From Escherichia coli (GTDB lineage: Bacteria; Pseudomonadota; Gammaproteobacteria; Enterobacterales; Enterobacteriaceae), in the NCBI RefSeq assembly GCF_016903815.1, contig NZ_CP069971.1: DNA of 48,644 nucleotides. The stretch is one strand, 5' to 3'. Positions 2,768 through 42,959 of the stretch are shown in pieces (the first letter of the stretch is position 1; the number at the start of each line of letters is the position of its first letter). The notes beneath the pieces are model-generated. The model saw only the letters and a program-made list of their open reading frames with translations. It made no database searches and was not told where the DNA came from. A program made the position numbers and the translations under genes.

Positions 2768-3258
2768 TCCTCAAGCCTCCCAAGTGCTGAACGCCGGGCG
2801 TTGCTAATCTCCTTATGAATCAGCTCGATATCGCTGGAATCTTTATTCTTAAGCTCCAGCACGGTAATCGCATCACGAACCTCTGAAACGGTTACGTGTG
2901 AGTGTTTCCAGCGAGCAATGAATCGCGGACCGCGTAGATTGCAACGCTCCGCAGGCATCCCCAACTCAGAGAAAACCGCTTTCAGCCTTGATAAGCAGTT
3001 AACAGGGAGATTCCCTTTGATCTTGTTCTGCCGAACCGATGTGCCATCGCTACGCTGGCGCTGACGTTCGGCAAAATCTGCCGCCCATTGCTGGACGTTA
3101 ATCCGGCCTTCCGAATACGCCACCAGCAGCGTCAGGTTATCCGCACGAGGGAATCTCTCGAAGCGATACCAGGCACCAATCAGTGATGACGTAAAGCCAA
3201 ACTTTCTGGCAACACCAATTTGGCCTCCATTTTCGTCAACCCACTCCTGAAAGGTCAT
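2764..3258 (-). CDS. Cro-like HTH regulator with C-terminal extension
   Basis: 164 aa; N-terminal GGQIGVARKFGFTSSLIGAWYRFERFPRADNL resembles Cro/YdaS-type HTH; divergent from the CI-like gene across an operator cluster. Confidence 0.5.
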   Translation of the reverse strand: MTFQEWVDENGGQIGVARKFGFTSSLIGAWYRFERFPRADNLTLLVAYSEGRINVQQWAADFAERQRQRSDGTSVRQNKIKGNLPVNCLSRLKAVFSELGMPAERCNLRGPRFIARWKHSHVTVSEVRDAITVLELKNKDSSDIELIHKEISNARRSALGRLEE

Positions 3259-3274
3259 TTAACGAACTCCAGTT

Positions 3275-3400
3275 AAAACCACGATATGTGGTATTAAAAC
3301 CACATATCGTGAGTTTTTCAATGGGCAAAACAAAAAATAACCTTCTATTTGTGGTCCACCTCTCGTCTTACCATGTGAAAACCACTAAATGTGGTAATGT
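3275..3400. promoter_or_regulatory. divergent promoter/operator region with ACCAC-N5-GTGGT operator sites
   Basis: Cores at 3278-3292 (ACCACGATATGTGGT), 3299-3313 (ACCACATATCGTGAG, the mirror of the first) and 3381-3395 (ACCACTAAATGTGGT), plus a GTGGTCCAC element at 3351-3359. Confidence 0.6.
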
Positions 3401-3432
3401 ATAAATAACCCACCATTCACGATTGATGAGAC

Positions 3433-4089
3433 ATGAAAAGCAACGACGAGAACATCAAGAAAGAAATAGGTCTGCGCATTCAGACTCTACGGAAACAATC
3501 CGGCATGACTGCCGGAGATCTCCAGCAAGTCACTGGAATAGGCTTAAGCACCTTGCAGAACTATGAGGCCGGATTAAGACAACCATCTATACCTGCCATC
3601 AAGAAAATCGCGCACGCCCTGAAAGCATCAGCGCCTTATATCGCGTGCTTAACAGATAACCCGTTCCCACCCCAGAATACTAACGCTCCTGTTATTCCTG
3701 GGCTTGTAGCTATAAAAAATGACATAGCATCGCACGCCGGAGAAAAGCCAGTGCTGGCGATAGAACAGGAGATTCTACGAAGCAAGAACATCAACCCATC
3801 GTCTCTGTCAGTTCTCCAGAGCAACGATGAGTTAATGTCACCAACAATATCCCCTGGCTCCCAAGTCCTGATTGATACAGACGATACAGAGATTCATGAG
3901 GGGATCTATGCCCTTGAAGACAGAAATGGCCTGGTTGTTTTGAGGCACTGTAGAGTCATACCGGGTGACAATGCTGTTATGCTGTCAACCGAAAGGGATG
4001 CTGAAATGAACACTAAGCATCTGAATAACGAGGAATTTAAGCGTTATAAAGTTCTGGGCCGCGTAGTTAGTGTTGTCAACTGGTTATGA
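3433..4089 (+). CDS. CI-like repressor (N-terminal HTH, C-terminal LexA/S24-type autopeptidase domain)
   Basis: 218 aa; HTH GLRIQTLRKQSGMTAGDLQQVTGIGLSTLQNYEAG; C-terminal ...VVLRHCRVIPGDNAVMLSTERD...YKVLGRVVSV resembles S24 peptidase. Confidence 0.75.
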   Translation: MKSNDENIKKEIGLRIQTLRKQSGMTAGDLQQVTGIGLSTLQNYEAGLRQPSIPAIKKIAHALKASAPYIACLTDNPFPPQNTNAPVIPGLVAIKNDIASHAGEKPVLAIEQEILRSKNINPSSLSVLQSNDELMSPTISPGSQVLIDTDDTEIHEGIYALEDRNGLVVLRHCRVIPGDNAVMLSTERDAEMNTKHLNNEEFKRYKVLGRVVSVVNWL

Positions 4090-4131: not shown

Positions 4132-4146
4132 ACCACATTTTGTGGT
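4132..4146. promoter_or_regulatory. operator site ACCACATTTTGTGGT next to a TTGACA element
   Basis: Perfect 7-5-7 palindrome AAACCAC-ATTTT-GTGGTTT directly upstream of the 4182 ORF. Confidence 0.55.
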
Positions 4147-5874: not shown

Positions 5875-5900
5875 AAAAAAGGCCCCCGAAGGGGCCTAAT
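5875..5900 (-). terminator. intrinsic terminator (GGCCCC-CGAA-GGGGCC, T-run on minus strand)
   Basis: Perfect GC hairpin flanked by an A6 run on the plus strand, i.e. T6 on the minus strand; lies between convergent genes. Confidence 0.65.
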
Positions 5901-5902
5901 CG

Positions 5903-6022
5903 CTACTTGCTGCTAATGTTTATCGTCACATTCAGAGCGTTATCAGTAATCTTCCAACCCTCCCCATGTGGCGTAAACAAAGCTCCAGTAACAACGATAA
6001 AAATACACATACAGTATTTTTT
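5903..6022 (-). CDS. small hydrophobic peptide (about 40 aa), function unknown
   Basis: MKKYCMCIFIVVTGALFTPHGEGWKITDNALNVTINISSK with an AGGG RBS, ending at the terminator hairpin. Confidence 0.3.
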   Translation of the reverse strand, partial: KKYCMCIFIVVTGALFTPHGEGWKITDNALNVTINISSK

Positions 6023-6423
6023 CATTGTATGGCCCTTACAGGCCGTTTCACGGCATCCCCACCGACGAAAACAACGCGAGAGCAAGCACGGCTGCTTGTG
6101 CTTGCATGTACGGCAACGGAGAATCCTCCCCTAAAGTCGGTGCCCGGGTGCGAATCGGCGGGAAGGTCCACAGGTATTTTACGATTATTTTAAGATTAGT
6201 TATAGGAAAGAAATTAAACGAAAAAACTCGTTTATTTTCACAAAATCAGTAACCTACCCACAATCTGTGAGTTTGCAGGCACAACAAGAACCACAATTTT
6301 ATGAAGCATAATAGTGGACTATTATTACCTTTTGGGTAAAATTAACTTGCTGCTTGTGCTTGCGTGGTTGTTTATACAACAACGTAATGCTGAAAGGACC
6401 GCGAATCCGATCAGCACGAAAGA

Positions 6424-6449
6424 ACCGTCCTCAATAGGGCGGTTTTTTT
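6424..6449 (+). terminator. intrinsic terminator/attenuator in the antirepressor leader
   Basis: ACCGTCCT-CAAT-AGGGCGGT followed by T7. Confidence 0.6.
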
Positions 6450-6468
6450 GTTTCTGCCTACCAATAAA

Positions 6469-6483
6469 CCCACACTATGTGGT
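6469..6483. promoter_or_regulatory. operator-like site CCCACACTATGTGGT (ACCAC-N5-GTGGT family)
   Basis: One mismatch to the operator consensus seen between the CI-like and Cro-like genes. Confidence 0.5.
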
Positions 6484-6593
6484 TGTCTCTGTTAAAATCC
6501 CGCCGTATTGACATAAATGCGCCATTGGTGGACACTTTCCTAGCCGTAGCAAAATCTACGGTCGGGATTGGAACCCCGTAGACACAATGGCGC

Positions 6594-6616
6594 ATACCGC
6601 GTTAGCGGTTTTTTTA
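6594..6616 (+). terminator. second terminator-like hairpin in the antirepressor leader
   Basis: ACCGC-GTTA-GCGGT followed by T7. Confidence 0.45.
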
Positions 6617-6781
6617 TGCGTAAAGCACTGCTACACCCAAATTATGGTGGGGCGTGCGGGGGAGTCGTAAGACTCGCCGGTTCGTCATTGTGTCCGGTAG
6701 TTCCAACCCTGCACGTCTCACCACCCAATGATTGGAACCTGACGGTGGTGAGTATCCTTAACCTTTAAGGGAATCATCACA

Positions 6782-6973
6782 ATGACAAACCTACCCCATG
6801 ACTATTACGTCAACCTCGTAAAGATCCTTCTCAAGAAAGCCTCATACGCCGATAAATTCCGCCTGGCTGAAATAATCGAGCGCGAAGCTATGCGCATCGC
6901 CAGCAACGATAACGCTGTTTCTGTCGCAAAAATCTCCCTCGTAACCAAAGTAGTTATGGGAGGTGCAAAATGA
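6782..6973 (+). CDS. small protein translationally coupled to the antirepressor gene
   Basis: 63 aa; its stop overlaps the ATG of the next gene (ATGA overlap at 6970). Confidence 0.45.
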   Translation: MTNLPHDYYVNLVKILLKKASYADKFRLAEIIEREAMRIASNDNAVSVAKISLVTKVVMGGAK

Positions 6974-8151
6974 AAACGCTTCCGACCGTTAACACCCTAC
7001 AGCCTATCCTGCATAACCAGATCCCCGTTATCACTACTGAACTACTGGCGCAATTGTATGGAACCGAGCGCCAACGTCTGACGAACAATTTCAATAGAAA
7101 CAAGGAACGTTTTATAGAAGGTAAACACTTTTTTAGGATAGAAGGTAAAGAGTTACGAGAGTTGAAGAACAAAAACTCTTTAAGAGTTCCTGTGAGAGTA
7201 GTTAACGAACCATCTTTAAGAGGGTTACAAATTCCCCCGAAAGTTCGCTCCCTCATCCTCTGGACAGAACGCGGGGCTGCACGTCACGCCAAAATGCTTG
7301 AAACTAACCAAGCGTGGGATGTGTTCGAACGGCTGGAAGACTGCTATTTCAGCCAGAACGCGCAAACGGCCGCGACCGTAACCGTCTCGCCAAGCAATGC
7401 TCGTGAGGTTGTTGATACGCTCAACGCCAAACCAATGTATTACGTTAAGGTGTGCAATAACGAGCCACTCACAACCTCAGCCGATGTTGCCCAGGCATTC
7501 AGCACCACAAACAATTCCATCGTTATGGCCATCGATGCGTTACGCATTCCTCGCACAGCTGCGGCGCGTCATTTCTTTAAAGAGCAACGACCGTTGGAAG
7601 GAAGCGACCGCGAAATAACAATCTATCGCATGACAAAAGACGGATTTACCTTGCTCATGGAAAGTATCGACGGTCCAAGCGTGAAGGATATCAAGCTGGC
7701 CTACATTGAAGCTTTTAACGCTATCAGCAGCGTGTTAAAGGCAGAATACGAGCGAATACTATACAACCGACTGTATCAGGAAACAAAGATTATCCGAACG
7801 GCAACAGAACATCATCGGCTATTAACGGAACCAAACTACCGCAAGACACTAATCAAAGAGTTTGACAAAGCGACGGAGAAAACTAAAGCGGCACTAAATC
7901 TACCAACAATGACTAAGGATGATGTGATATCAGCCTTACTTCTTGATCTACTCAGAAACGCCAGAGCACTTATAAGCTTTGACGAAAACCTGAATCCTCA
8001 GCTCAAGCTACTACCACCGACAGGCAAAGTAGTCGACCAGGCTGATCACAACAGCATACTCAGCGTTCTGGATGCAAACCTGCCAGCCAGGACACTACAG
8101 GAACTGATAAAAATATCTGCGGATAAACTGGCCGCAGGTGCAAAACCATAA
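6970..8151 (+). CDS. antirepressor-like protein (ORF6N/KilA-type N-terminal domain)
   Basis: 393 aa; N-terminal ...NNFNRNKERFIEGKHFFRIEGKELRELK...LILWTERGAARHAKMLETNQAWDVFERLEDCYF matches the ORF6N-type antirepressor pattern as I recall it. Confidence 0.6.
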   Translation: MKTLPTVNTLQPILHNQIPVITTELLAQLYGTERQRLTNNFNRNKERFIEGKHFFRIEGKELRELKNKNSLRVPVRVVNEPSLRGLQIPPKVRSLILWTERGAARHAKMLETNQAWDVFERLEDCYFSQNAQTAATVTVSPSNAREVVDTLNAKPMYYVKVCNNEPLTTSADVAQAFSTTNNSIVMAIDALRIPRTAAARHFFKEQRPLEGSDREITIYRMTKDGFTLLMESIDGPSVKDIKLAYIEAFNAISSVLKAEYERILYNRLYQETKIIRTATEHHRLLTEPNYRKTLIKEFDKATEKTKAALNLPTMTKDDVISALLLDLLRNARALISFDENLNPQLKLLPPTGKVVDQADHNSILSVLDANLPARTLQELIKISADKLAAGAKP

Positions 8152-13848: not shown

Positions 13849-14055
13849 ATCTGGTCATTTTCCAACCAGACACCCACAATCATAACCACGTTACGTGGTT
13901 TTAAGAGAACTCTACCACAACACTTTCGGTCATGCACGAAGTCTCTCACTGATCGAACGATAATCCACCAGTAAAAGGATCTAAATTGGATCTCGTTTTG
14001 CGAGCATCATACTACTGGCCTAACTCCAGTCAATGATGAACATAACAACACTCCT

Positions 14056-28152: not shown

Positions 28153-28638
28153 TTAGATAAACTCCTGAGACTGAATATTCTGAGGCTTTAATACTAGCCA
28201 CGTTCCAGTTGCTTCCGTTATCCAATATGGATATGGTTGATCATCAAACATTCGCCATCTGATATCACCCTGAAAGAGAAATTTCTCTTCAAGTAAAGGC
28301 TTCTCCTGGAAATGAAACATCATCCTTTCAAGAAGAGCCATTACCCATTCATATCCAGTATGGTCCTCACAAAAACCACCTAGAAGAAACTTAACCTTAA
28401 CTTCATCCGTTTCAGGCTGCATTCCTCCTTCCGTTGGTCTGATAATCACATGAGGAAATTCTGGCGATTTATCTGGAGATGGTTGTGATTTAGGAGGCAA
28501 GTACCCTTTAAATATTGTTGGAACAAACAATTTAATATCGCTGTCTGTTTCATCATAAGGAGGCCCCTGCACTAATAAATCATGGAAAACCTCATGTTCC
28601 AACCGATTTTTTATTGCATCTATCAAAAGATTAATCAA
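28153..28638 (-). CDS. putative neck/tail completion protein
   Basis: 161 aa; position between head and tail modules. Confidence 0.4.
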   Translation of the reverse strand: MINLLIDAIKNRLEHEVFHDLLVQGPPYDETDSDIKLFVPTIFKGYLPPKSQPSPDKSPEFPHVIIRPTEGGMQPETDEVKVKFLLGGFCEDHTGYEWVMALLERMMFHFQEKPLLEEKFLFQGDIRWRMFDDQPYPYWITEATGTWLVLKPQNIQSQEFI

Positions 28639-33707: not shown

Positions 33708-35564
33708 CTATATGGTTACGCCTTTACTTATAACTCTACGGCGTCTTCTACGTATACCTGACGAGTTCTGCACATACACATTACCTCGCATTTCCTGTTC
33801 GGCAAGCCAGTTAAAATTAGGGTTCAGAATTTCCATCGCGGCAGTTGCATAGTTACGGCAATCAAGAGGCTCGTTACGCTCGTAGACTTTCACCCACTTT
33901 TCTTTTGTCTGCCCATTTTTATATTCAAATATTTTTTTCTCTGATAATAATCCTTTAAAGTATTCGGTATCATATCCTCTGTCAGAATCTAATGGGAAAT
34001 GCATATAACCAGGACCAGGATCATGTAGTTTAATTCTTGCCATGATGGTCCCTTTACCATCATCAACCCCCAAATTAAACAACATAGCACCCACACGGTT
34101 ATTATTACTTGGCTTTCCTATAAATGGTAAACCTACCCCACCACGCCCCCTGATAGAGTATATTCGCCTTGATTCTCTCGGCTTAGTAAAGCGATATACC
34201 TCTGTCGTAAAATGCCCACCAGAGTCAATACAAACGGAAGAAATCTGTAATTTTCGACCGTCACGGAATGACCAGCTACGGAGTAAGTATTCATCAAGTT
34301 GTTTCCAGACAACATCTTGTGCGGGATCACCTGGGAATATTTTATATTCTATCCCCCATGACTCCTTACCTTTTCCCCAACCGACCAATTCACAAACTAA
34401 ATACGTGTCCTGTACGTCAACACCAGCACTTAACAATAAAACATCATCTGGTAAAAACTCTTCAAACCTTATTCTGCGTTGCAACAAGTATTCAGGATCG
34501 ATATCGTCTTTAGCATCCTCTTTCCATGGCTCACCCAGCTTAAGGTTAATAAACTCCATTAATCCATTTTTATCGCGGTTTCTGGTTGCTTCCGTAAATT
34601 CTTCAACCAGCTCTGACAATGCAACCCACGGGGAGTAAAGACTGTTAATATGAAAACCAACAATACCTTTAACTCCAGTATGTTCAGCTATCCATACCCC
34701 CTTCGCCAACCAATCAACGTCTGGTTTACCAGATCCGCGCATAATCCCGCCGCACTCACAGCACTCATATCTGGCCGTTTCCGGTAACGCCTCACCTGAA
34801 TCGCTCTTATCCCATCTGACTTGCGACCATTTCATCACCTGCATGGTGCCACAACATGGGCAAGGAACATGGTAGTAACGCTGATCGGAGAGCTTAAACC
34901 ACTTGTGGATTTTGCTCGTTTCCTCCAAAACAGGAGTAGAAACAAAAACTTTCTTACGATTATGAAAGTTGGTAGTACGCTGAATACCTAGTTTTAGTGG
35001 GTCGCCCTCCTGCGTCACACCGTAACGATCAATCTCATCAGCTAACAGTATTCGAATTGGCCTGGATGCAAGACCTGCTGGGGAATTAGCACCAACAAGT
35101 GCTATATATCCACCAGCGTAATGCTTCATACGTATAGTCGTGCTGGACTTTTTGGCTGCACCGCGCCCCTCTTTCCCTTCATGCAGCTTGTGTTTCAAAC
35201 CAGGGGAATATTTGAACGTCGGATCAATACGCTCCTTTGAAAAAGCCTCAGCCGCCTCTACCGTTGGATAAATCATCAACTGAGGAGATGGCTCCTGATC
35301 TGCAAAGTAACCCATAACATTTAGCTGTAATTCGGATTTACCAATTTGTGAGCTACATTGCATCACTACTGTTTCTGTATCAGCGTCACCAATAACATCC
35401 ATTGGTTCACGTAAATATGGCACTCGGCTTGTACGCCACGGCCCTGGCTCTGGAGACGTTCCCGGCGCTACATGACGATACTTATCAGCCCATTCGGAAA
35501 CAGTTAGCCGTGATTTAGGGCGAAGCGCACGGAAAAAAGCGGTGCTCCATACTGTTTCGCCCAT
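33708..35564 (-). CDS. terminase large subunit (lambda gpA-like)
   Basis: 618 aa; ...YHVPCPCCGTMQVMKW...RYECCECGG... Cys cluster and overall size. Confidence 0.85.
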   Translation of the reverse strand: MGETVWSTAFFRALRPKSRLTVSEWADKYRHVAPGTSPEPGPWRTSRVPYLREPMDVIGDADTETVVMQCSSQIGKSELQLNVMGYFADQEPSPQLMIYPTVEAAEAFSKERIDPTFKYSPGLKHKLHEGKEGRGAAKKSSTTIRMKHYAGGYIALVGANSPAGLASRPIRILLADEIDRYGVTQEGDPLKLGIQRTTNFHNRKKVFVSTPVLEETSKIHKWFKLSDQRYYHVPCPCCGTMQVMKWSQVRWDKSDSGEALPETARYECCECGGIMRGSGKPDVDWLAKGVWIAEHTGVKGIVGFHINSLYSPWVALSELVEEFTEATRNRDKNGLMEFINLKLGEPWKEDAKDDIDPEYLLQRRIRFEEFLPDDVLLLSAGVDVQDTYLVCELVGWGKGKESWGIEYKIFPGDPAQDVVWKQLDEYLLRSWSFRDGRKLQISSVCIDSGGHFTTEVYRFTKPRESRRIYSIRGRGGVGLPFIGKPSNNNRVGAMLFNLGVDDGKGTIMARIKLHDPGPGYMHFPLDSDRGYDTEYFKGLLSEKKIFEYKNGQTKEKWVKVYERNEPLDCRNYATAAMEILNPNFNWLAEQEMRGNVYVQNSSGIRRRRRRVISKGVTI

Positions 35565-42883: not shown

Positions 42884-42959
42884 TGGTGGCCCCTACCGGA
42901 TTTGAACCGATGACCGTGCGATTATGAGTCGCCTGCTCTAACCACTGAGCTAAGGGGCC
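42884..42959 (-). tRNA. tRNA with CAU anticodon (Met or Ile2-type)
   Basis: 76 nt; GGCCCCTTAGCTCAGTGGTTAGAGCAGGCGACTCATAATCGCACGGTCATCGGTTCAAATCCGGTAGGGGCCACCA; cloverleaf folds by eye, encoded CCA end. Confidence 0.8.

Follow-up and report, generated by a model that had tools for sequence, protein, structure and literature searches.

What keeps the antirepressor gene of this Escherichia coli phage-plasmid in check, and how much of the DNA upstream of it takes part in that control? In an earlier note on the window, by which we mean the whole 48,644-nucleotide (48.6-kb) stretch of DNA analyzed here, the region from 6100 onward was read as a single leader of ~680 bp with two attenuators, likened to the antisense-controlled antirepressor loci P1 c4/icd/ant and P22 sar/ant. 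We arrive at a different partition, to which we assign a probability of about 0.78: two unrelated RNA-controlled modules adjoin, a timP/TimR-type pair at 5875-6449 and an immI-type antirepressor operon at 6470-8151 that would be controlled by a C4 antisense RNA in the manner proposed below (Table 1). Three families exceed their gathering scores in the Rfam scan (ryfA, isrK, and C4), and the scores of the latter two place the antirepressor locus in the antisense-controlled class of P1 c4/icd/ant. The stretch 6470-8151 is a P1-type C4 antisense antirepressor switch, an immI-type operon as in P1, D6, N15, and Gifsy-1, and the ant leader proper, counted from its promoter, is ~240 nt long.

Table 1. 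Features of the timP/TimR-type neighbor and of the antirepressor operon, in window coordinates
Feature	Position	Strand	Detail
ryfA/timP mRNA, putative type I toxin transcript	5875-6171	-	Rfam RF00126, 142.3 bits (gathering score 80), full length 1-296
TimP-like small hydrophobic ORF, 40 aa, MKKYCMCIFIVVTGALFTPHGEGWKITDNALNVTINISSK	5903-6025	-	ATG is mRNA position 147
Predicted TimR binding site in timP 5' UTR	6091-6108	-	mRNA nt 64-81, >60 nt upstream of AUG
Promoter-like site for TimR-like RNA	6315-6342	+	TGGACT, 16 nt, TAAAAT
TimR-like putative antitoxin small RNA	6349-6449	+	Fold z = -6.3; ends in first terminator
Palindrome CCACACTATGTGG	6470-6482	.	CCAC-N5-GTGG
Candidate extended -10 element	6490-6498	+	TGtTAAAAT, read from sequence
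Leader promoter	6508-6536	+	TTGACA 6508-6513, 17 nt, GACACT 6531-6536
isrK-like leader RNA	6543-6615	+	Rfam RF01394, 67.7 bits (gathering score 50)
Target site a1, UUGGAAC	6568-6574	+	Loop of isrK hairpin 2; complement of a'
Target site b1, GACACAAUGGCG	6581-6592	+	Unpaired spacer of Rfam isrK consensus, just before terminator
C4 antisense RNA	6640-6728	+	Rfam RF01695, 77.8 bits (gathering score 45), full length
b' recognition loop of C4, CGUCAUUGUGUC	6683-6694	+	b1 partner
a' single-stranded recognition heptamer of C4, GUUCCAA	6700-6706	+	Complement of a1/a2
Hairpin with a2 in loop	6717-6752	+	93% paired across 19 loci, 4 pairs changed on both sides
Target site a2, UUGGAAC	6732-6738	+	Starts 4 nt past C4 3' end
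Target site b2, CACAAUGACAAACC	6778-6791	+	Covers AUG 6782-6784 of 63-aa ORF
63-aa ORF in icd position	6782-6973	+	phrog_7886, function unknown, E = 2e-46
Antirepressor-like protein (Ant), 393 aa	6970-8151	+	ORF6N PF10543 9e-21; Phage_pRha PF09669 5e-12

The upstream module is a timP/TimR-type type I toxin-antitoxin pair, with putative toxin and antitoxin roles assigned from sequence, and it agrees with the timPR architecture described in PMC7667032. As in the chromosomal timP/TimR loci of Salmonella and E. coli (PMC7667032), a small hydrophobic ORF, here nested in the listed ORF 5903-6085, lies within a transcript that matches Rfam ryfA over its full length. A divergent small RNA closed by an intrinsic terminator accompanies it, again as in those loci, and the 5' end of this RNA is complementary over 18 nt to the toxin 5' UTR, at a pairing site that precedes the ribosome-binding site by more than 60 nt. 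Taken as RNAs, the two segments (6091-6108 vs. 6349-6366) form 17 Watson-Crick pairs and one G-U, and the predicted start of the TimR-like RNA, near 6349, is where the complementarity to timP begins. Its terminator, which the earlier note had rightly recognized at 6424-6449, comprises a hairpin (6424-6443, stem 6424-6430/6437-6443) and a T-run to 6449 (z = -7.4 for the 38-nt fold) and is absent from the list of the consensus terminator scan. The minus-strand mRNA would encode the 40-aa hydrophobic peptide, and the divergent plus-strand RNA would pair by its 5' end with the toxin 5' UTR. Unlike its chromosomal counterparts, the pair resides on a phage-plasmid and its TimR-like RNA has no similarity to chromosomal timR/ryfB: sensitive blastn against 5,426 E. 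coli genomes matched only this plasmid family and no E. coli chromosome. Because of this dissimilarity, the TimR identity rests on architecture, complementarity, and one compensatory change, TimR GCUGCUUG/timP CAAGCAGC here vs. GCUGUUUG/CAAACAGC in the ATCC 25922 plasmid and phage Yp41. The ryfA/timP mRNA is a neighbor lying outside the ant leader and overlaps the start of the region considered in the earlier note. Sub-threshold Rfam matches at 6340-6451 (RNAI, E = 0.009; Phe leader, E = 0.21) were rejected as terminator-driven, and the complementarity of 10 nt of C4 (6701-6710) to timP coding sequence, which shows no co-variation in Yp41, was taken as chance.

The antirepressor operon opens with a palindrome, in agreement with an operator-like site previously suggested at 6469-6483. 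Its CCAC-N5-GTGG motif occurs in five copies in the window vs. 0.32 expected, and three of them, at 3279, 3382, and 4133, lie on either side of the cI-like repressor gene (3433-4089); judging by this distribution, the palindrome at the head of the operon is probably an operator for the prophage's own repressor or for a Cro-like protein. The extended -10 candidate may further mark a second, upstream promoter whose -35 zone would coincide with the palindrome, a possibility that has its analogy in P1, where operator Oc4 overlaps promoter P2c4 (P1 annotation). The leader promoter, with a predicted transcription start near 6543, has a weak -10 hexamer (GACACT) and stands in register with its counterparts in 19 related loci as well as with P1c4 (formerly P51b) as annotated in P1. 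No LexA box was seen by eye in the leader, CTGTGAGTTTGCAG at 6266 being wrongly spaced.

The isrK-like RNA that begins at this promoter, directly upstream of C4 and ant, has two 5' hairpins (hairpin 1, 6543-6562; hairpin 2, 6563-6578), an unpaired spacer, and an intrinsic terminator made up of a hairpin (6596-6609) and a T-run. The earlier note had located this second terminator at 6594-6616, and it is present, with its seven T's, in the terminator scan. The c4-a1b1 family (RF03163) matches 6530-6582 with 38 bits (E = 6e-8), below its gathering score of 46.7. Segment b1 of the isrK-like RNA is 92% complementary over 12 nt to the C4 loop at 6683-6694 and ends 4 nt upstream of the terminator stem, and with the resulting duplex (-18.9 kcal/mol) it outranks every other target of the C4 loop within 6500-7000.

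The C4 RNA itself, for which we used Rfam families RF01695 and RF03163 and clan CL00128, has the C4 fold: a closing stem (6645-6661/6707-6723) encloses hairpins 6662-6675 and 6676-6698 (z = -5.7). Its helices are 99-100% paired with compensatory changes; the closing stem is 100% paired in the 19-locus comparison, and 8 of its pairs have changed on both sides. Two sets of complementary sites frame it, a1/b1 upstream and a2/b2 downstream. A motif previously seen repeated in two hairpin loops is indeed there: GATTGGAAC has exactly two copies in the 48.6-kb window, at 6566-6574 in isrK hairpin 2 and at 6730-6738 in the hairpin that follows C4. It represents the C4 target site a1/a2, to which a' is complementary; the near-complement GTTCCAACC also exists but lies at 6700-6708, 10 nt away from the 6710-6718 at which it had been reported. 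Where small RNAs had been anticipated from 6400-6620, the isrK-like RNA falls inside that range and C4 outside it. Both the C4 RNA gene and the second pair of sites, b1 and b2, had been overlooked.

Downstream, the hairpin that presents a2 and the C4 fold are mutually exclusive because one segment serves both as 5' arm of the former and as 3' arm of the closing stem in the latter. Site b2, 14 nt long and 93% complementary to 6679-6692 of C4, overlaps the translation start region of the first ORF, and phage Yp41 has a compensatory pair, b' UCAUGAUGA and b2 UCAUCAUGA, likewise over its AUG. A candidate b2 at 6742, obtained in a search allowing G-U pairs, proved spurious under Watson-Crick-only matching. 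The 63-aa ORF, 98% identical to a Yp41 protein, can be called icd-like by its position and by the ATGA (6970-6973) through which its stop overlaps the ant start, but not by homology: BLASTP finds no similarity to Icd of P1, D6, or N15, there is no Pfam match, and we reject it as an Icd homolog. The regulated gene is, by homology, an antirepressor: its product combines ORF6N and Rha domains, matches PHROG anti-repressor families, and is 53% identical to Gifsy-1 AnrP over its N-terminal 163 aa (E = 2e-51).

It is important to note that duplex energies alone do not distinguish a2 and b2 from the window background: the a2 pairing spans just 7-8 bp (-8.8 kcal/mol) and that of b' with b2 yields -13.2 kcal/mol. 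Since these energies are unexceptional, the case for a2/b2 rests on co-variation, traced in a comparison set of 19 loci that includes P1 and D6; Gifsy-1 and N15, examined besides, have the same sites. As a control, the site finder recovered P1's annotated a1, b1, a2, and b2 positions exactly. An isrK-then-C4 tandem, ~25 nt apart, recurs in 17 other loci as well as in Gifsy-1 and N15, and P1 and D6 have c4-a1b1 followed by C4. Across 11 a' types and 17 b' loops, a' and its cognate a2 share a Watson-Crick match of at least 7 nt in 19/19 loci (8 nt in one), vs. 0/306 for non-cognate combinations, and b'-b2 matches average 8.3 nt when cognate and 4.6 nt when not. The a1-a' columns are 91.7% paired with 6/7 pairs changed on both sides, and their covariation score of 0.68 compares with 0.16 in shuffles, 0/500 of which reach the observed value, and with at most 0.18 when the partner is slid. 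The intramolecular helices are 95% paired, 22 pairs having changed on both sides in the 19 loci.

The architecture that emerges is shared with P1/P7 immI (c4 - icd - ant1/2) and D6, in which a promoter is followed by a1/b1, a terminator-like hairpin, and a C4 of the same fold. There, too, a2 directly adjoins the 3' end of C4, b2 occupies the region in which translation starts, and the small ORF that comes next shares an ATGA overlap with the antirepressor gene; the operator motif match of the prophage repressor upstream of the promoter likewise parallels P1's Oc4. The a'/b' sequences here differ, however, and would give a different specificity, b2 lies on the AUG and not on a Shine-Dalgarno sequence, and the small ORF is unrelated to Icd. 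In comparison with P1, Ant is an ORF6N/Rha protein unrelated to Ant1, and the main repressor is lambda CI/LexA-like, with an S24-type C-terminal part (PHROG match), and not P1 C1-like. N15 immA (antA-icd-antB, under the control of a small processed RNA) also belongs to a plasmid prophage; there, too, an isrK-like leader and its terminator precede C4, and the a1, b1, a2, and b2 sites match, whereas the downstream proteins are unrelated and N15 is a linear telomere phage, the relatives of the present element being circular plasmids of ~48 kb.

The Gifsy-1 locus, isrK - 'orf45'/STnc1160 - anrP, provides the genetic counterpart (PMC4825925). Its isrK and C4 both exceed the Rfam thresholds at the same ~25-nt spacing, the isrK promoter drives anrP, and the a1-a' pairing is the very helix that its authors tested: of the residues concerned, G28 and G31, whose mutations G28A and G31A increase expression, map to a1, and their partners C159 and C162 map to a' (PMC4825925). 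Provision of IsrK in trans increases translation of anrP by more than 100-fold, Hfq binding by isrK and trans-activation of the downstream antirepressor having been shown for Gifsy-1 only, and the authors' explanation invokes alternative cis structures together with an ORF inside the C4 sequence, not a trans-acting C4 (PMC4825925). The present locus departs from that of Gifsy-1 in that the 63-aa ORF, with b2 on its AUG, is interposed between C4 and ant, whereas anrP directly follows C4 and has b2 on its own Shine-Dalgarno sequence; furthermore, the 45-codon frame inside C4 is reduced to 8 codons, Ant has an extra Rha domain, and the host element is a plasmid prophage where Gifsy-1 is an integrated lambdoid one.

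In light of these relatives, we propose that transcription would start near 6543 and in part halt at the intrinsic terminator (6596-6616), releasing a short isrK-like RNA with a1 and b1, and that read-through transcripts would hold C4, a2, b2, the 63-aa ORF, and ant. C4, presumably cut from the leader as in P1, would pair through a' and the letters CGUCAUUGUG of loop b' with a2 and b2; since b2 covers the AUG of the 63-aa ORF, its pairing with C4 would block translation of that frame, and Ant would then fail to be made, through either translational coupling or transcriptional polarity. By the same analogy, Ant would act against the cI-like repressor. Segments a' and b' fit a1 and b1 as well, so the upstream sites could let C4 act on the nascent leader beside the terminator, and conversely the free isrK-like RNA could titrate C4 and thereby relieve repression. 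A role of a1 as pure decoy is disfavored because the cis mutation G28A in Gifsy-1 a1 raised expression, which a pure decoy would not predict. Tentatively, and with more doubt than conviction, we combine these steps into a two-level RNA toggle in which C4 would both strengthen isrK-like termination through a1/b1 and, through a2/b2, prevent use of the first ORF's AUG. The terminated RNA would serve as a dedicated C4 sponge, Ant output would be set by how many transcripts terminate relative to those that read through, and a'/b' would constitute the specificity code.

Other distributions of labor among the same elements can be envisaged. If the locus worked chiefly by attenuation, as reported for N15 and P4, C4 binding to nascent a1/b1 would make termination at 6596-6616 efficient and the a2/b2 block would be secondary. 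Such a mode fits the position of the terminator stem, which begins 4 nt past b1, as well as the same isrK-plus-C4 layout in N15 immA, where the annotated terminator coincides with the isrK terminator; work by Ravin et al. from 1999 is said to show that this N15 terminator needs the small processed RNA. It also accords with the effect of Gifsy-1 G28A, expected if a1 binding aids termination, and with the P4 seqA-CI-seqC parallel made by the Gifsy-1 authors (PMC4825925). Yet the fold of 6543-6645 contains no antiterminator structure for C4 to disrupt, and a2/b2 co-vary as strictly as a1/b1 with b2 always on a Shine-Dalgarno sequence or AUG, which indicates a translational target. We therefore hold predominance of attenuation to be unlikely, although it is compatible with the translational mode and both may operate. 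More improbable is the Gifsy-1 model itself, according to which there would be no trans-acting C4 repressor, the read-through mRNA would fold into an inactive form in cis through a1/b1 and 6683-6706, and the isrK-like RNA would be the only trans activator, refolding the mRNA. The minimum free energy fold of 6543-6800 does join b1 to b' and a1 to a' in cis, and native gels and trans-activation data speak for such a mechanism in Gifsy-1 (PMC4825925); but the model makes no use of a2/b2, conserved and co-varying in 19/19 loci, its 'orf45' amounts here to only 8 codons (ATG 6644 to TAA), and in Gifsy-1 the compensatory double mutants fail to restore silence (224 and 327 units vs. 4; PMC4825925). 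In P1, moreover, C4 acts in trans as a processed 77-nt RNA, according to the P1 annotation and, as cited in the literature, Citron and Schuster (1990, 1992).

The two remaining alternatives concern the extent and the polarity of the regulatory RNA. A single ~680-nt leader that begins near 6100, passes through two attenuators in succession, and gives rise to small RNAs from 6400-6620 would be in keeping with both terminators sharing the strand of ant, but 6100-6171 is the 5' end of the minus-strand ryfA/timP RNA, ~6349-6449 corresponds to a separate small RNA, and the first terminator belongs to that TimR-like RNA of the neighboring type I pair, which has its own promoter and the 18-nt antisense match to timP. 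In plasmid NZ_CP009073 of ATCC 25922 and in phage Yp41, the first terminator and the ant promoter are also set apart by an insertion with a minus-strand HTH gene (~806 bp as measured in the former), so the two parts are independent, and the promoter at 6508-6536 is itself conserved. On the strength of the Rfam scan and this insertion polymorphism, we reject the long leader and its double attenuator as very improbable. Scarcely credible is control of the P22 sar type, that is, by a cis-encoded antisense RNA that is read from the other strand and spans the ribosome-binding site of ant: apart from the broad idea of an antirepressor under antisense control, nothing favors it, whereas the minus strand at 6600-7400 has neither a promoter-like site nor an Rfam match and no arc or mnt genes or ORFs are adjacent. 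The likeness to P1 c4/icd/ant drawn at the outset thus stands, and that to P22 sar/ant falls.

The P1-type C4 switch described here is a clear but ordinary further case of a known phage RNA switch, on an E. coli phage-plasmid, and opens no new mechanism. Members of the plasmid family are present in 83/5,426 complete E. coli genomes, among them that of reference strain ATCC 25922, and also exist as Yersinia phages; we found no literature on the Yersinia phages vB_YpM_39/41/44. The RNA genes of the locus are unannotated in all inspected database records of this plasmid family, the CDS call upstream of ant in the Yp41 record begins inside the C4 RNA, and in several records of other phages CDSs are called straight across isrK/C4 RNAs.

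A C4-type switch on a phage-plasmid shows how the antirepressor, and so probably induction, would be kept off. If the proposed toggle is true, the published structure A/B model of Gifsy-1 would have to be re-read as C4 pairing with a2 and b2, and the a'/b' code would decide cross-repression and cross-induction among co-resident prophages and phage-plasmids. P1 immI, N15 immA, and Gifsy-1 isrK-anrP can be regarded as one module with interchangeable recognition sequences, and this view may make immunity and cross-talk among mobile elements more predictable.

Three matches exceed the curated Rfam gathering scores in the 5875-6728 stretch when the whole window is scanned, namely ryfA, isrK and the C4 antisense RNA, and an extra, permissive scan adds the model for the upstream C4 targets. 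The earlier note had read 6100-6973 as one ~680-bp leader of the antirepressor gene ant; this is not upheld, as a neighboring toxin-antitoxin pair (5875-6449) had been merged into it. The region is real and well organized and its right analogue had been named, but the boundaries were wrong and the key RNA gene, C4, was missed. The repeated loop motif GATTGGAAC does occur exactly twice in the 48.6 kb, at 6566-6574 and 6730-6738, both proposed terminators are genuine hairpin and T-run structures, and the operator-like palindrome CCACACTATGTGG (6470-6482) and the 63-aa ORF (6782-6973), which overlaps the ant ATG at 6970, are likewise confirmed. The near-complement GTTCCAACC exists but lies at 6700-6708, 10 nt off the 6710-6718 originally assigned. 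Finally, what we designate below as the a target sites had been noticed but not the b sites, and it is the latter that connect the C4 RNA to translation.

Features of the toxin-antitoxin and ant leader region (window coordinates)
Feature	Position	Strand	Remarks
ryfA	5875-6171	-	Rfam, 142 bits
isrK	6543-6615	+	Rfam, 67.7 bits
C4 antisense RNA	6640-6728	+	Rfam, 77.8 bits
'a1, b1 targets of C4' model	6530-6582		permissive Rfam scan, 38 bits, E = 6e-8, under gathering score
Leader promoter	TTGACA 6508-6513, weak -10 GACACT 6531-6536	+	predicted start near 6543
isrK-like hairpin 1	6543-6562	+	
isrK-like hairpin 2	6563-6578	+	loop holds UUGGAAC
isrK-like RNA spacer	between hairpin 2 and terminator	+	unpaired in Rfam isrK consensus
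isrK-like RNA terminator	6596-6609 + U7	+	second terminator of the earlier note
a'	6700-6706	+	single-stranded GUUCCAA in C4
b'	6683-6694	+	C4 loop CGUCAUUGUGUC
a1	6568-6574	+	complement of a'
b1	6581-6592	+	complement of b'; 12 nt, one G-U
a2	6732-6738	+	complement of a'
b2	6778-6791	+	complementary to b' region; 14 nt, one mismatch

The upstream regions of 19 related loci share an aligned -35 of the TTGAC type and a -10 hexamer located 6-7 nt ahead of the first hairpin; in P1 these two correspond to the annotated promoter P1c4 (formerly P51b). A gap of 24 nt separates the isrK-like RNA from C4, whose recognition segments (a', b') and target sites upstream (a1, b1) and downstream (a2, b2) are labeled here following P1 nomenclature. 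The AUG (6782-6784) of the 63-aa ORF falls within b2. The hairpin at 6717-6752 presents a2 in its loop, and its 5' arm is also used as the 3' arm of the stem that closes C4. The promoter spacer (6517-6527) also forms an 11-nt perfect inverted repeat with 6585-6595, the 3' part of b1, which would be relevant only with an upstream transcription start, e.g., from a candidate extended -10 at 6490-6498; in P1, D6 and some lambdoid loci the promoter spacer region is complementary instead to the 3' arm of hairpin 2.

Nineteen further loci were fetched, including P1, D6, Stx phages, phiV10, phiP27, mEp460 and Klebsiella and Salmonella phages, and 18 of them were compared together with the window; the ATCC 25922 plasmid, with C4 and sites the same as the window's, was left out. 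C4 is present in all 19 fetched loci and isrK lies directly upstream in 17 of them, with P1 and D6 carrying c4-a1b1, and the site search run on P1 returns the annotated a1, b1, a2 and b2 exactly. The 19 distinct loci compared have 11 different a' heptamers and 17 different b' loops. In all 19 the cognate a2 complements a' perfectly over 7 nt or more, as compared to 0/306 non-cognate a'/a2 combinations reaching 7 nt; the cognate a1 match reaches that length in 18/19, and the mean b'-b2 match spans 8.3 nt for cognate vs. 4.6 nt for non-cognate pairs. In a MAFFT alignment, pairing across the a1-a' columns is 91.7%, with both sides changed in 6/7 pairs; their covariation score is 0.68 (0.16 shuffled), a value that none of 500 shuffles reaches, and sliding the partner gives at most 0.18. 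For the intramolecular helices pairing is 95%, and 22 pairs differ on both sides; for the a2 hairpin it is 93%, with 4 such pairs. In phage Yp41, the closest divergent relative, b' reads UCAUGAUGA instead, and b2 (UCAUCAUGA) matches it, likewise over the AUG; duplex energies by themselves do not settle the case for a2 and b2. Together, these data demonstrate the parts of the C4/ant locus, their folds and their co-evolving complementarities.

In light of the P1 annotation, of summaries and of the established work on P1 C4 reported by Citron and Schuster in 1990 and 1992 and by Biere et al. in 1992, we propose that C4 would be cut out of the leader transcript and pair with a2 and b2, preventing translation from starting at the 63-aa ORF's AUG and consequently silencing ant through coupling or polarity. 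By analogy with Gifsy-1 and N15, a1/b1 could further provide a landing site for C4 beside the terminator and thus increase termination, and the terminated short RNA carrying a1/b1 may act as a decoy that titrates C4 and turns Ant on. Either attenuation or the translational block may carry the greater weight.

The Gifsy-1 locus presents isrK, the Rfam C4 RNA and anrP in succession, with spacing as in the window. Its anrP is driven by the isrK promoter and is untranslated at baseline, with translation rising more than 100-fold upon provision of IsrK in trans; a stable processed RNA, STnc1160, was detected over this region, and the authors pointed out the parallel with P4 seqA-CI-seqC (PMC4825925). 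In the isrK locus (34131-34316 in the Gifsy-1 record), 'orf45' of that study lies inside the C4 RNA, its AUG107 belonging to the AUUAUGG that is invariant at the 5' end of C4. In the same numbering, a1 corresponds to nt 26-32 and includes G28 and G31, where Hershko-Shalev et al. isolated the up-mutations G28A and G31A in the isrK locus (PMC4825925), and a' corresponds to nt 158-164 and includes the partner positions C159 and C162. Double mutants failed to restore silence (224 and 327 units vs. 4; PMC4825925), as expected if a' pairing with a2 is required too; that requirement went unconsidered in the study, and we infer the result to be consistent with it. N15 immA has the same leader, with above-threshold isrK and C4 scores (28301-28502 of the N15 record) and its annotated immA terminator coinciding with that of isrK; the annotated start of N15 gene 32 falls inside the C4 RNA.

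Further control may come from the palindrome CCAC-N5-GTGG, a family that looks like immunity-switch operators and has five exact copies in the window vs. 0.32 expected. Two copies (3279-3291 and 3382-3394, with a near copy at 3300-3312 alongside) lie between a divergent 164-aa gene and the cI-like gene and a third (4133-4145) just past the latter; the others are at 13886-13898 and, upstream of the ant leader promoter, at 6470-6482. Because the copies cluster around the cI-like gene, and in P1 the C1 operator Oc4 is annotated upstream of the c4 promoters, the 6470-6482 copy, which has one mismatch in relatives, is a plausible operator of the repressor that the prophage itself encodes. At -73 to -61 from the predicted start it is too far upstream to block the leader promoter directly; a second promoter with the candidate extended -10 TGtTAAAAT (6490-6498) and the palindrome as its -35 zone is speculation.

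The upstream stretch, 5875-6449, holds a complete timP/TimR-like type I toxin-antitoxin pair on a phage-plasmid. Within the ryfA RNA lies a hydrophobic ORF of 40 aa, and a sigma-70-like plus-strand promoter (6315-6342) would start an RNA near 6349 whose first 18 nt (6349-6366) repeat 6091-6108, which makes them antisense to nt 64-81 of the minus-strand timP-like mRNA, >60 nt upstream of its AUG; this RNA ends at the first terminator of the earlier note (fold z = -7.4). The architecture is that of Salmonella timP/TimR, where the small RNA is divergent, is complementary through 18 nt at its 5' end to the timP 5' UTR, far upstream of the ribosome-binding site, and finishes at an intrinsic terminator (PMC7667032). 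Since blastn found no similarity of the TimR-like RNA to any E. coli chromosome among 5,426 complete genomes, its assignment rests on architecture and complementarity, the latter featuring a compensatory change in the ATCC 25922 plasmid and Yp41 (TimR C to U with timP G to A). In that plasmid an 806-bp insertion, absent from the window and most E. coli relatives, is flanked exactly by the TimR-like terminator and the palindrome, and thus the pair is separable from the ant operon; it carries a minus-strand gene for a 190-aa HTH regulator, and Yp41 has a same-sized gene in the same place. The junction maps to window 6455/6466, with the relatives' segments at 3161-3967 (ATCC 25922 plasmid) and 760-1332 (Yp41). 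Separately, AGGGUUGGAA in the minus-strand timP coding RNA (5952-5961) is a 10-nt perfect complement of 6701-6710 in the C4 a' region; this is probably chance, because a' differs in Yp41 with timP unchanged. The pair may serve as a plasmid-stabilizing or accessory module.

Over 6500-6990 the window shares 99.8% identity with the circular 48.5-kb plasmid that E. coli ATCC 25922 carries and with dozens of plasmids of 47-50 kb, and the region is 90-96% identical in Yersinia phages vB_YpM_39, 41 and 44 and present, nearly always plasmid-borne, in 83 of 5,426 complete E. coli genomes. Given these relatives, a ParA-like gene and the cI-like repressor, the element is a phage-plasmid; it also bears a tRNA-Met (CAT) gene (42884-42959, minus strand). 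No inspected record of the relatives annotates the RNA genes of the ant/timP region. Several phage records place protein-coding genes across isrK and C4 (L011 821-1972, L012 793-1938, L010 1127-1786 and, in Yp41, L002 1687-1974), named 'Rha', 'peptidase', 'transcriptional regulator' or 'hypothetical protein', which are probably over-extended ORF calls.

All elements of the region fall into curated families, each with a relative studied by experiment, and the departures from known systems are small: the AUG is covered by b2, Ant combines ORF6N and Rha domains (first 163 aa 53% identical to Gifsy-1 AnrP), a cI-like protein is the main repressor, the phage-plasmid is circular, and the small ORF, assigned to a PHROG of function unknown and with no Pfam match, shows no similarity to any Icd compared (P1, D6, N15). 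Of low general interest, identification of the C4/isrK/timP locus is useful for annotation.
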